The translations under genes and the position numbers were made by a program. A stretch of 62,871 nucleotides of DNA, filler included, from Sluysia triapertura (lineage: Eukaryota), in assembly GCA_046118255.1 (NCBI GenBank). It is 5 parts of 5 records of this genome, joined end to end, with 100 filler letters (N's around TTAATTAATTAA, not from the genome) between each part and the next. Parts side by side here need not be neighbours in the genome. Positions count along the whole stretch, not along the records: positions 1 to 11,453 come from JBJNIA010184579.1; positions 11,554 to 24,037 come from JBJNIA010104765.1; positions 24,138 to 40,174 come from JBJNIA010212587.1; 2 more parts are not named here. The stretch is one strand, 5' to 3'. The notes beneath the pieces were generated by a model that was not told the DNA's origin, did no database searches, and worked only from the letters and a program-made list of their open reading frames with translations. Positions 188-30,022 of this stretch are shown here, piece by piece; positions within the stretch are counted from its first letter, which is position 1, and each line of letters starts with the position of its first letter.

Positions 188-2251
188 TGTTGTGAAGTTT
201 TAAAGTTTATTATTGTTTTTATGTTAAGATCTTTTTTATAATATGAAATCAAATTATCTTTTACTTTACTAATTTTTAAATTAATTTTTATCAAAAATTC
301 TTTATAAAATTTTTTGTTTCGAAACGAATATTATATTATTATTAAATAAAAATTCGAAATAATAACATAAAAATTTATTTTTTAAAAGATTTAATTTTTG
401 TACTTAACTTCTATGCACGAGACTTCTTGAAGATGTTCCACCTATAAATAAAAAATAAATGTAATAATGACTGTCAACATATAATGGATATAAATAGACG
501 TTACTTACATTGCGGTTGTCGTCTGAAACGTTGGAAATTACTGGAATCGTATTCAGCAACTCTGAAATTCGTTCCAAGTGCAGGTAGTAAGATTATCTAT
601 CTTGTTCAGTGAACTTAAACTCATAAATAGAATGAATGTATCTGAAGTGTAGACTATGCGATAAACAGATCCTATTATTATCAGTAAGAGCTGAATACAT
701 AACACTTGTATAACTAAATTTCTTTTATTTGACTTATAATAGTCTTGGTCATGACCTTTATGTCGAGAGTTATTAGTAAAATACTCATTGTCCACATTAT
801 ACTTTTAGTAGACCTTACGTTTAACTTTATTAATATCATTAATATTATTTTTATCGCTAAAAAAATTAATTAAATTTAAATTATAATAATAAAGTTTGAA
901 GACATTTATCATTTTTATGAATACTAAAAACTTAACTTTGTAACGCTAAGTTTATGAAATTTCTCTTTAATATAGTTAAAGAAAACATCGTGTTCTTTTT
1001 CGTTGTTGGCTCTACCATCAATATATTCTCTTCTCCATATATGCATAAACTCGCATCAGCATTATTATCTTTATCATTATTAGGATTACAATTGTAAGCA
1101 TCGCAATGCTCGACTTCGACATTAATAACTTTATTATTACATATTGGCAATCGTCATAATCATCTTCATCGGCTTTATTCTGATTATCTCGAGTAATCAT
1201 AGCTGGAATATTGTTATCTTTACTTATCTTCATAGTTGCATATTGTATAATCATTACATTGAACATCATTAACTTTATGTTGATCATGACCTACAATCAT
1301 AACTTTAAGTTCATCATTAGCTTTATATTGATCATCACGAACAATCATAACTGGTACATTAGTATCTTTATTGTTGTAGATTAAGTCAAACTTAACTTCA
1401 TAGTTACATATCATATAATCGTTATATTTATCATCATTAGCTTTATTTTGATCATCTGATGCATCTCTTGATGATCTAAAATTAATGTAAGCGCCTCTTT
1501 GTCCATTGTATGTAGAAAATTTGACATTGCAATCAACATCAACTTGTTCACACTCTCGATAAATGATATTACGTACATCATAATTTGATAAACAATGAGG
1601 AAGTTTACTTAAACAAATAGAATAATATTTTCTGTCTATTCCTTCATTTTCATGACTACGATAATTTTGTGAATCTGTAGACTAATGCACATCAACAAAA
1701 TCATGACCAAATAACTTATGAAGCTAAATAACAGTAGATGGTGGATTAAAAGTATGTTGAAATAGAGTGATTTCGATAATTAAAAGATGATAAGTTATAG
1801 TGTAGGTTTTATTATGTTTGTAATAATGGTTATATAATGTTGAAAATGTGATTTACTTTCTTGATATATTTAAGTAGTGATGTCTTTATGTATTGTTAAG
1901 ACTCAAATGATGTAGATCATGAATTCAGAGTGTTTGGAAAGATTTGAGAGTGTGTGATAATTAATTTCGAATGTGGTTGTGATTCGGTCATTTTGAAATA
2001 AAAGACAAAGTACTTTAGATGAATTTTTAATGCAATTTAATGGTTAAAATGTAATTGTGGTTTGGATGTTATGAAATTATGTGTTTCGTTGATTTTAACA
2101 GGTGGAGATGTTTTTAATGAATGTAAAAGAGATAAATATGTGAGTATTAAAATGTTTAAGAGTATGGTTTTATGTACGATATGTTGATTTAGTTTAATTT
2201 TATTTTCTGTTGATTTTGGGTGTAATTTGTAGAAATAGGTTGGCCATCACA
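188..2251 (-). mobile_element. TGT...ACA cargo element copy 1 (long solo-LTR-like, 2064 bp) with a perfect 5-bp TSD
   Basis: Minus strand begins TGTGATGGCCAAC (2251) and ends CACAACA (188). It is flanked by ATGAA at 183-187 and at 2252-2256 and interrupts the LINE ORF1. The 5' ~500 bp are homologous to ~6900-7475 and ~29600-30022. Confidence 0.8.
1220..1680 (-). pseudogene. Truncated RRM resembling RBM15/Spenito RRM1, fused in frame to Asp/Asn-rich repeats (cargo of copy 1)
   Basis: Reads KYYSICLSKLPHCLSNYDVRNIIYRECEQVDVDCNVKFSTYNGQRGAYINFRSSRDA, with RNP2-like ICLSKL and RNP1-like RGAYINF. It continues in frame into the 1220-1414 ORF. Repeats of DDQxKAND...DYxICN run down to ~930. Confidence 0.65.
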
Positions 2252-4529
2252 ATGAAGTCTAAAGTTTCACCTTATTTAACTAATCTTTCAATGCCTATAT
2301 TTTTATCAATAATATCAGCGATTATATTACTATTACTTACATCATTAATTAGAACTGCATGTGGGTTTTCCAACTTGCATTTAAGATGAGATTGGTTAAT
2401 GCTATGATTAACTGATTTAATACTTTCCTTATCAGCAGAGTCGATTAATAAGTTGCCGTTCTTTGTTTTTTGTAATTGTTTATCTTCGAATTTATAAAAA
2501 TGTTTTTTAAATCTAGAACACTTTCGCTATTTTGATCTTCATCATTTATTAAAACCATTCTGTAGCTTTTATTGAGGTTATTCGTTTTTTGATTAATGTT
2601 CTTTAATTTTTTATTTTCAGTTGATTTTTGACTTTTTCGTTCTTTCCATCTTTAGTATTTTCAATTTTAGATAATTCTTCCGTCAGTGTTTATAATTCCT
2701 TGTTAACAGTAACTTTTCCATTTACAGAAACTTCTGTTTTTAAATTAATCTCTTTTTCCAAAACATAATTCACGAAAATTGTAAATTATCTTCATTGAAT
2801 TATCTAATAATTCACAAATGTCGCTAATTTTTAATAACAGTCTCCTTTTTCATCTTTTTAATATTATCTATACTTAACATTTCATATTTTTTTATAATAC
2901 TATCAATGACATTAGATTCTTCATTTTCAAACGTTAAATTCTTCATTTTTCAAACAAAATGTTTTTATTTTATTAGAAATAACCAAGTAAAATTTTTATA
3001 ACTTGACAGAATTTTTAGGACAAATTTTTATAAAGATTAGATATTGATACCTAGAACAAATCCTGATTAAGAAGAATAATAATTGATCAACTTCTTTCAA
3101 CAATTAGATGTATTTTGCGTAAGTTTATTATTATAAGTTTCCTCACTCTTCCTTTTCAAAGGAAGAGGCTAAATTCGTACGTAAAATATTACTAATTGAA
3201 CGCTATTTAAAAGCTAATTATTTAAAGGCTAGCTTAAAATAATTTTTAAAATCAAAAAATATTAAGAAGTCCTCTTAATAATATATTAAATTTTGTCGTT
3301 ATTATACTGAGTTATTTGTGTAATTAAATAGATACACCTTAGTTGATTTAGTTATTTTACTGTATATAATTCATTTGTTAGTTTTATTTTGATCAGTTCT
3401 GACCGATTTAATGATTATATATTGGTTTAGTTCCATTTATTAACTTCCATGTATATTAGTTCCATCTATATTCCATTTATATATTGCCTTTTTAACAAGA
3501 GAACAATATGTTACAATTTACAATTATTAATTCACGTTTTGTTAGTATGTAAATATAGCACCCATATTACGAATTTATATTGCCTATTGAACGTTGTTTC
3601 ATCGAATAAGAAATAAGACTCTAACAGTTAACAGTTCCATTATTATTCCGCTACATAAAATAATATTTAAGCGTAAACCGTCAAGGGATTCCTCTTATTT
3701 AAGAACTTTTGATTTTGAAATCCTAATAACACGTTCTTTAGCAATAAACGTAAAGCATGCTAATTAGACATGATATTTTGCAAGTATAAGTTAAGGAAAG
3801 AAGAATATTCTTGCATTAATAGTGATAATAATCATATAATGATATCTTTTATAAAAATAATTATTATTATAATTATAACTAAAATAATAATCAATAATTA
3901 TGATCATTAGATATTGGATACTTGCAATTCAATGAAATTTAGATTGGATACAACAGTTGCCAATATAAATTTTACTTATTTAATAATTAATAATAATACT
4001 TAATTGTATACAATAATTAATTTGCAGGGATAGAAATTTTGTAAGTGCTAACAAAATCTTTAAACGAAACCTTATTTTTTGAAAATACTATTAACATAGA
4101 AAAAGCGAACTTATCGGTGCGGTGTTGCAAACCTACAATTCATCCAAAACAAAAATCGCCATTAACACTCAAAATATTAAACATATATACAATCTTATAT
4201 AGACTTAGCACATCAACATAAAACCACTAAAAACTATACCTATTTCCAGAAGTGGTATATCAAATATCAGATATTAAGAAAAGTGGAATGAGATAATGTT
4301 TCCTATAAAAAGAACAAGAATTCTAACCGAAATTGTTGATGCAGCATCACCAAAAGGTGCAAAAGCTCCCAAATATGAATTGCTATTAACGCAAGATCAC
4401 TTTGAACAAGCCGCAAAACATACAGTATATAGAATTTGGGGGAAATTTGCCATAATTGGGGCACATTTGTATTGTTGTATTGGAATTTATATTGTTCTAA
4501 AGGCTATTATTATATGCACTCAAGTATTA

Positions 4530-29900: not shown

Positions 29901-30022
29901 GTATGACTTGATTCTGGCAGATGAACTGTTTTGGTGATTGTAGAGAGATAAATATGTGAATATTAGAGTGTTAAAGGATTATTTTTTATAAAATTTACTA
30001 ATAGTGAAGGTTGACCACCACA
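26942..30022 (-). mobile_element. TGT...ACA cargo element copy 3 (3081 bp) with a near-perfect 5-bp TSD
   Basis: Begins TGTGGTGGTCAAC (30022) and ends CACAACA (26942). Flanks are AGTAT (26937-41) and ACTAT (30023-27). The 5' and 3' blocks and the hairpin are homologous to copy 2. Confidence 0.78.
27476..29002 (-). pseudogene. Three overlapping ORFs (174, 229 and 123 aa), probably one frameshifted ~500-aa gene of unknown family (cargo of copy 3)
   Basis: Same-strand ORFs overlapping by 23 and 37 nt give 1.5 kb of near-continuous coding potential in very AT-rich DNA. No motif was recognised. Confidence 0.55.

Follow-up and report, generated by a model that had tools for sequence, protein, structure and literature searches.

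Protein genes inside the U3 region of a long terminal repeat (LTR) are known from retroviruses (sag of mouse mammary tumour virus, nef of human immunodeficiency virus, bet of foamy viruses); in LTR retrotransposons, accessory genes are usually reported from the region between the two LTRs, and formation of a solo LTR removes them. Several papers describe the nearest systems: LTR models comprise integrase motifs, CA/CAA-rich U3 stretches in some groups and AATAAA (PMC3601003); the order GAG-ENV-POL, with env before pol, is reported for flatworm Gypsy elements (PMC13524379); env of the planarian Burro element matches mononegavirus fusion proteins (PMC6431247); the foamy-virus LTR is reported to hold microRNA hairpins (PMC7104284, PMC7693620); and HERV-H LTR blocks were exchanged by recombination (PMC8912925). 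The present analysis concerns a family of 2–3 kb elements (copies 1–4) in a window of 62,871 nucleotides from Sluysia triapertura (GCA_046118255.1), that is, the whole stretch of DNA analysed; N spacers at 11454, 24038, 40175 and 51694 separate its contigs, and it has a gap at 45405 and a G+C content of 26%. This one window, with three complete copies, was the scope of the work, and copies paired around gag-pol were looked for within it. The copies are read, at a probability of roughly 0.6, as solo LTRs of long-LTR Ty3/Gypsy lineages with accessory open reading frames (ORFs) inside the LTR, shuffled by recombination.

The elements are real. Copy 1 (188–2251, minus strand, 2064 bp, TGTGATGG...CACAACA), copy 2 (4530–7475, minus strand, 2946 bp, TGTGCTGG...CACAACA) and copy 3 (26942–30022, minus strand, 3081 bp, TGTGGTGG...CACAACA) are complete; copy 4 (39903–40174, plus strand, 272 bases) comprises the 5' end and the CA-rich block and is truncated by the contig end. 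The original prediction, made from the sequence by eye, had listed the CACAACA ends at 188, 4530 and 26942 and four start motifs, and both were recovered: the 13-base start motif is exact at 2251, 7475 and 30022 (minus strand) and at 39903 (plus strand), with a fifth exact occurrence, which had been missed, at 50434 (50422–50434, minus strand); matches were found in 0 of 100 shuffles. By the positions of the N spacers, copies 1–4 lie on two contigs (1–11453 and 24138–40174), and not on three as had been stated. The fifth motif is not followed by a CA-rich block and its membership is doubtful; it lies near IP3-receptor exons, and CA with the same five flank bases occurs ~80 bases on, possibly by chance.

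Target-site duplications (TSDs) were read from the flanks and agree with the earlier account: perfect in copy 1 (ATGAA, 183–187 and 2252–2256, plus strand), 4/5 in copy 3 (AGTAT at 26937–26941, ACTAT at 30023–30027, plus strand) and none in copy 2; in element sense the pairs are TTCAT/TTCAT (5/5), ATAGT/ATACT (4/5) and GTATT/TAATA, respectively. The chance per junction, taken from the window, is 0.0029 for 5/5 and 0.035 for at least 4/5. The flanks of copy 2 (4522–4529 and 7476–7482) form a 7-bp inverted pair (AAGTATT-A/AATACTT) with no direct duplication (chance ~0.002 per element), which may reflect a palindromic target or a rearrangement. AATAAA is located at 206–211 in copy 1 (18 nt before the terminal base), 4551–4556 in copy 2 and 26961–26966 in copy 3 (all minus strand), i.e., 18–21 bases before the last base in 3/3 family ends and in 0/10 of the other CACAACA occurrences (13 in the window; background 6%); copy 2 has an earlier AATAAA (element position 2513), which copy 3 lacks. 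The 5' motif TGTGGYG of CsRN1, a liver-fluke element, is matched exactly by copy 3 and within 0–1 mismatch by 5/5 starts, and the generic 3' motif YNYAACA is exact in 3/3 ends. Inverted similarity of the termini covers 5–6 of the first 7 bases and is then lost (11–14 of the 40 terminal bases); no long terminal inverted repeats (TIRs) were found on comparison of the terminal 40 bases. A TGG primer site after the ends was found in 0/3 cases and a clean polypurine tract before the starts in 0/5; no internal direct repeat of the 5' block (block A) or of the 3' block (block C) occurs within any copy, and the combination that defines large retrotransposon derivatives (LARD) and terminal-repeat retrotransposons in miniature (TRIM), namely two LTR copies, primer site, polypurine tract and non-pol interior, was not found at the copies.

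Block A is formed by the first 450–600 bases of each copy (minus strand: 1750–2251 in copy 1, U3-like; 6860–7475 in copy 2; 29545–30022 in copy 3) and has a CA density of 12–15 per 100 vs 5.4 in the window (12.0 in copy 1). The C/A skew that had been pointed out holds: when the segments of the window are ranked by skew, block A of all four copies comes within the top 10. With copy 1 block A as query, the five best of 462 window tiles were block A of copies 2 and 3 (scores 100–256; next 56); with copy 4, the two best of 470 tiles were block A of copy 2 (64 and 52; next 48). Judged by these alignments, the CA-rich block is homologous across the copies, beyond mere composition. Identity is 72% for copies 1/3 and about 64–65% over ~200 bases for the pairs with copy 2. 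Two C-over-G skewed segments (52350–52650 and 53550–53950, plus strand) gave no alignment to block A.

Copies 2 and 3 have in common a hairpin and a 3' block, as had been described. Hairpin 1 (copy 2: 6535–6594, minus strand, 19-bp stem, z −6.6; copy 3: 29203–29263, minus strand, z −4.5) is homologous in the two copies, the stems of 18–19 bp differing in four pairs, two of them compensatory. Hairpin 2 of copy 3 (29093–29158, minus strand, z −7.6) has a perfect 18-bp stem with CCAAT/ATTGG, ~90 nt upstream of the ORF start. Among the best 25 of 49 close inverted repeats by length these three are, spacers aside, the only stems of >90% complementarity; no Rfam family was matched at threshold, sub-threshold matches being to generic hairpins only. 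Block C, G/T-rich, comprises the last 559 bases of copy 2 (4530–5088, minus strand) and the last 482 of copy 3 (26942–27423, minus strand), with 412 of 461 aligned columns identical (89%) and 11–12 GT/TG per 100 vs 3–5 in block A; scans with exact motifs of block C gave 0 matches in metagenome contigs or viral contigs. It was not detected in copy 1 (z 1.0 and 2.8), where hairpin 1 is also absent, so the chassis common to all copies is confined to the termini, the 5' block and the AATAAA-CACAACA end. To this extent the conserved chassis of the original prediction stands; block C and the hairpin do not belong to it, and the similarity is unequal. Copies 2 and 3 agree in their module order (block A, hairpin, ORF, block C). 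Since the pair most alike at the 3' end (copies 2/3) differs from the pair most alike at the 5' end (copies 1/3), the chassis is, on these comparisons, a mosaic of modules of unequal similarity. Coding constraint is absent from blocks A and C (no third-position bias in either; many single-base indels in block A).

A candidate third shared block was noted before block C (copy 1, 188–497; copy 2, 5361–5679; copy 3, 27433–27779), with z ~4 vs shuffles; in one direction it ranks first of 464 tiles. With the two remaining queries AT-rich tiles reach equal scores, and because of this background the third block stays a lead. In copy 3 it ends in TTCCACAA, resembling the copy 1 end; if the similarity is real, block C may have been added behind an older end.

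The interiors had been called coding-like and sense-oriented, and the longest ORFs do lie on the sense strand in 3/3 copies (153 codons in copy 1; 176 and 104 in copy 2; 229, 194 and 123 in copy 3), the antisense maxima being 66, 98 and 66 codons for copies 1–3. The ORF of copy 1 (1220–1681, minus strand, 153 codons) has an RRM-like start followed by D/N-rich repeats; the RRM proposed for it was not found in Pfam, and its sole support is a weak PDB match to RRM1 of the SR-protein PfSR1 (E 0.059). Copy 2 contains a frame of 176 codons (5786–6316, minus strand) with low-complexity D/N/K/Y repeats and no family match, and a second one of 104 codons (5502–5816, minus strand), a length expected by chance ~0.9 times per window. 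The gene-like stretch of copy 3 (27476–29062, minus strand), for which a single gene of ~500 amino acids had been suggested, turned out to consist of three separate frames of 194, 229 and 123 codons, stop to stop (28478–29062, 27811–28500 and 27476–27847), with no known relative. Given the tiny chance expectation of these frames (1e-5 for 229 codons, 3e-4 for 194), the copy 3 interior is taken to derive from a gene, now split over three frames.

D/N-rich repeats continue the interiors of both copies 1 and 2. Homology of these two interiors was considered and rejected: z is 4.6–5 under base shuffles, but 1.0–1.7 under codon shuffles. As the similarity is lost under codon shuffling, the interiors are best treated as unrelated to each other. 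A degenerate RRM in copy 2 was likewise unsupported, and a cullin-like repeat in copy 3 frame 1, an idea formed by eye, gained no support from searches. Copy 3 frame 1 has 0 homologs among 1.84 billion representatives and nothing in the Atlas; for copy 3 frame 2 and the copy 1 ORF no homologs were found either, the Atlas giving for frame 2 only weak helical look-alikes with recognition below threshold. Pfam, NCBIfam and PDB contain no families for the interiors beyond the weak PDB match of copy 1. Single-sequence folds of the interiors have a predicted local distance difference test (pLDDT) score of ~45 (copy 1 ORF, 45), and fold searches with such models gave nothing informative. No host parent gene was found for any interior in protein, family and structure searches; gene capture by the copies, which had been put forward as a possibility, is therefore not established. 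The differing interiors may be swapped among the copies or may be fixed accessory genes of distinct subfamilies. One sequencing run contains 0.33 of the sampled words of copy 3; no RNA run was among those listed.

The copies are surrounded by retroelement remnants. Pieces of a Monjiviricetes fusion glycoprotein (Pfam PF24664, E down to 7.5e-9) are present at 4278–4529 and, three in number, in 30399–31763; the former stops at the copy 2 end, on the far side of which no continuation of the glycoprotein was detected, and the piece at 30399 begins 377 bases from copy 3. A decayed reverse transcriptase (RT; 8879–9226) matches the Ty3 RT (E 3.2e-5), part of the domain being gone, and is preceded on the same strand by a glycoprotein-like piece with a 16-residue match to the 4278 fragment (z 9.6) and no Pfam match of its own; env before RT, as in this remnant (9903–8879), is the GAG-ENV-POL order reported for flatworm elements. 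Next to copies 2 and 3 the glycoprotein remnants run antisense to the copies, and neither primer site nor clean polypurine tract was found at the junctions; for these reasons the copies are best read as insertions into retroelement debris and not as its LTRs. A zinc-knuckle remnant (LINE ORF1-like or gag-like; Pfam zf-CCHC, E 0.003) occupies 3–185 and 2252–2830 (minus strand); by eye, the coding-like sequence on the other flank of copy 1 continues it, and copy 1 appears to interrupt this remnant. The region 8400–10100 as a whole holds a heavily deleted Ty3/Gypsy remnant (minus strand) and a RING finger (plus strand) related to one at 14450–14794. At 30050–33751 (plus strand) a coding-like lead-in is followed by the broken fusion glycoprotein, then directly by a Sec23/24 beta-sandwich fragment (Sec24; E 2e-6, near 31900), a D/N-rich repeat and an ORF of 273 codons, which is built of ~30-residue repeats and matched no family; this composite may be the interior of a large gene-capturing element.

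The marks of a solo LTR seen at the copies are integrase-type ends (3/3), duplications (2/3), the homologous CA-rich 5' block and AATAAA near the 3' end. Of the two origins offered in the original prediction, long solo LTRs or elements moved by a Gypsy/Ginger-type integrase, the former is favoured by the Metaviridae integrase motifs, the CA/CAA-rich 5' block and AATAAA at a fixed distance; absence of primer site and polypurine tract, as in solo LTRs, also counts for it. The copies are likely solo LTRs of several diverged Ty3/Gypsy-type lineages in a flatworm-like host, and each probably had an accessory protein gene within the LTR. The following course of events may be envisaged: a full-length element would integrate, recombination between its two LTRs would remove gag-env-pol, and one LTR would stay behind with its target duplication. 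Loss of the duplication at copy 2 could be due to recombination between two insertions or to flank decay. Template switching between co-packaged genomes could swap the 3' block, while the middle diverges or is replaced; expression of the ORF would start at a promoter close to the hairpins, or proceed through a spliced message of the 3' LTR, and would stop at the terminal AATAAA. A likely autonomous parent is a Gypsy element with env, in the order gag-env-pol, of the Burro/flatworm-errantivirus kind; remnants of this kind lie beside the copies, with no physical link seen.

A number of points weigh against solo LTRs with internal genes. LTRs of >1.5 kb are absent from Drosophila, yeast and Anopheles, and LTRs of 2–3 kb are uncommon in animals (PMC3485330); the eLife table gives LTR coordinates for a single flatworm env element (1/9 rows), with LTRs of ~0.86 kb. 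The integrase motif tables (PMC3601003) contain short, degenerate motifs. With AATAAA at 18–21 nt from the end there is hardly any space for U5, and block C, which is G/T-rich, is upstream, not downstream, of this signal. Copy 2 lacks a target duplication, no paired copies flanking gag-pol occur within the window, and no relatives could be identified for the interiors, which in copies 1 and 2 consist in part of low-complexity repeats, a type of sequence that easily stays open. Finally, the Gypsy assignment is drawn from the terminal motifs and the unlinked Ty3-like RT remnant, and a BEL/Pao origin is possible. An extended form of the solo-LTR account is offered tentatively and with considerable doubt: the LTR would be a swappable gene cassette, made up of a CA-rich enhancer block, a double hairpin with CCAAT, a captured gene and a polyadenylation end, which template switching would reload with host-derived or orphan genes, the hairpins possibly giving small RNAs.

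Four other explanations were weighed. The copies might be self-contained non-autonomous units of 2–3 kb, never paired, moved in trans by a Gypsy-type integrase and picking up host fragments, as do Pack elements; in favour of this, 3/3 complete copies stand alone, two of them with 5-bp duplications, their interiors differ and all read in one direction, and copy 1 has the weak match to an SR-protein RRM. Lone copies are, however, equally the appearance of solo LTRs, the searches for a host parent were negative for every interior, neither primer site nor polypurine tract was found at the copies, and instead of the near-identical ends of Pack elements block A shows 64–72% identity, 89% being reached only in block C of copies 2/3. 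We know of no established copying route for a lone LTR without primer site and polypurine tract, and consider an origin of this kind unlikely. Derivation by deletion or recombination was also considered: the element would open with the beginning of a 5' LTR (block A) and close with the final part of a 3' LTR (block C), and between them would be either leftover accessory ORFs from the internal region of giant Burro-like elements or host DNA that had been copied into an old, already inserted LTR. Burro elements do carry many accessory domains and tandem repeats, heavily deleted composites exist in the window (the glycoprotein-Sec24 fusion near 31900; the RT remnant with its partial domain), and copies 2 and 3 resemble each other much more closely in block C than in block A. 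Three independent deletions would nevertheless be needed, each erasing every trace of gag, env, pol and primer site together with the second LTR; no copy contains an internal direct repeat of block A or C, and the constant order of block A, hairpin, ORF and block C in copies 2/3 is a further objection, which makes such a history somewhat less likely again.

Chance pairing of separate small repeats around unrelated sequence, as the source of the 5' and 3' ends, would accommodate copy 1 without block C, copy 2 without a TSD and the fifth start motif without the chassis; it is very improbable in view of the joint TSD evidence (0.0029 and 0.035), AATAAA at 3/3 ends, constant orientation and module order, and a common hairpin at the same place. 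Least of all is to be said for DNA transposons of the Ginger type, non-autonomous, ending in TG...CA and carrying captured DNA. The TGTNR start is present in 4/5 motifs, and TDD-4 and TDD-5 give 5-bp duplications; but TIRs of 40–270 bp are expected and only 11–14 of 40 terminal bases match here, the TSDs of the animal elements have 4 bp whereas the copies show 5-bp duplications of other sequence, and both the CA-rich block, which is asymmetric, and the AATAAA at the terminus are features of LTRs. Because the inverted similarity ends after ~7 bases, Ginger as defined is excluded, and this branch of the original prediction is largely refuted by the missing TIRs.

Concerning the remainder of the window, a host G protein-coupled receptor gene (41444–42898, single-exon, 485 residues) has two relatives found, both from Paragonimus (29–35% identity), on the strength of which the host is probably a flatworm. 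Sec7, Sec23/24, IP3-receptor and Tc3 pieces were identified with Pfam and confirm, as far as such domain matches go, an animal genome with transposon debris; no tRNA genes were found in the scan. Intron-less ORFs without known family are clustered at 12683–16575 (plus strand; 160 and 288 codons with hydrophobic ends, a RING finger, 304 codons, and a P/S/T-rich frame of 136 codons), and this cluster looks like a mobile or viral gene block. Members of a dispersed repeat family, 73–85% alike, occur at 11556–12000, 22594–22760 and 62742–62869, and 3' end fragments of the LINE (long interspersed nuclear element) type at 23743–24037, 40275–40728 and 49500–50270; 40275–40351, at a contig edge, is identical to 49604–49680 over 77 bases. 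A decayed hAT-like transposase was recognised by eye only at 34250–35800 (plus strand), and a Tc3-type helix-turn-helix fragment is present at 37625–37996 (minus strand; E 0.002).

If the solo-LTR account is true, a gene inside the LTR would be doubled in every full element and would survive in each solo LTR; with different genes in different lineages, solo LTRs would be a source of orphan genes in flatworm genomes. Repeat annotation would then have a blind spot, coding solo LTRs of 2–3 kb being called host genes, and an invertebrate parallel to the genes in retroviral U3 regions would be at hand. Under the more doubtful cassette form, every insertion and every solo LTR would scatter a free-standing expressed gene.

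Comparison with known systems gave the following. Solo LTRs of animal Metaviridae (CsRN1 and Mag clades; Benachenhou et al. 2013, PMC3601003) likewise have integrase end motifs, a CA-rich 5' part, AATAAA near the 3' end and a short TSD; the copies differ in their length of 2–3 kb, coding-like interiors, strong hairpins and almost no room for U5. The giant planarian Gypsy elements Burro/GYPSM1 and the flatworm gB-type errantiviruses (PMC6431247, PMC13524379) are alike in flatworm host, env before pol, accessory or host-like domains and tandem repeats, and matching remnants lie beside the copies; their extra domains are, however, in the internal region and not in the LTR, and no link between the copies and such an element was seen. 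Retroviral U3 ORFs likewise combine a gene and paired hairpins in a long LTR, but belong to vertebrate viruses with one fixed gene, whereas each lineage here has a different, unrelated interior. Plant LTR retrotransposons with additional ORFs and long-LTR families such as Ogre and Retrosat2 (PMC7264820, PMC3485330, PMC6431247) offer orphan accessory ORFs and LTRs of 2–6 kb; the plant ORFs sit internally, mostly between pol and the 3' LTR (PMC7264820). Ginger1 and Ginger2/TDD (PMC2836005) resemble the copies in the TGTNR start and integrase-type ends and are set apart by TIRs of 40–270 bp and, in animals, a 4-bp TSD (CCGG/CCGT or RTATAY target), neither of which was found here. Troyka was rejected: CG...CG ends and a 3-bp TSD are needed, and the copies have TG...CA ends and a 5-bp TSD. 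The literature searched, with subscription papers and Repbase outside its scope, yielded no account of flatworm LTRs that bear ORFs and have exchanged interiors. The mosaic LTR7 subfamilies of HERV-H (PMC8912925) show the same exchange of LTR blocks by recombination, in short, non-coding LTRs with no ORF exchanged, whereas the copies are long and carry ORFs. Solo LTRs, long LTRs and accessory ORFs are thus each already known; the interest of the present copies, which are probably LTR-derived, lies in their coding interiors and mosaic blocks.

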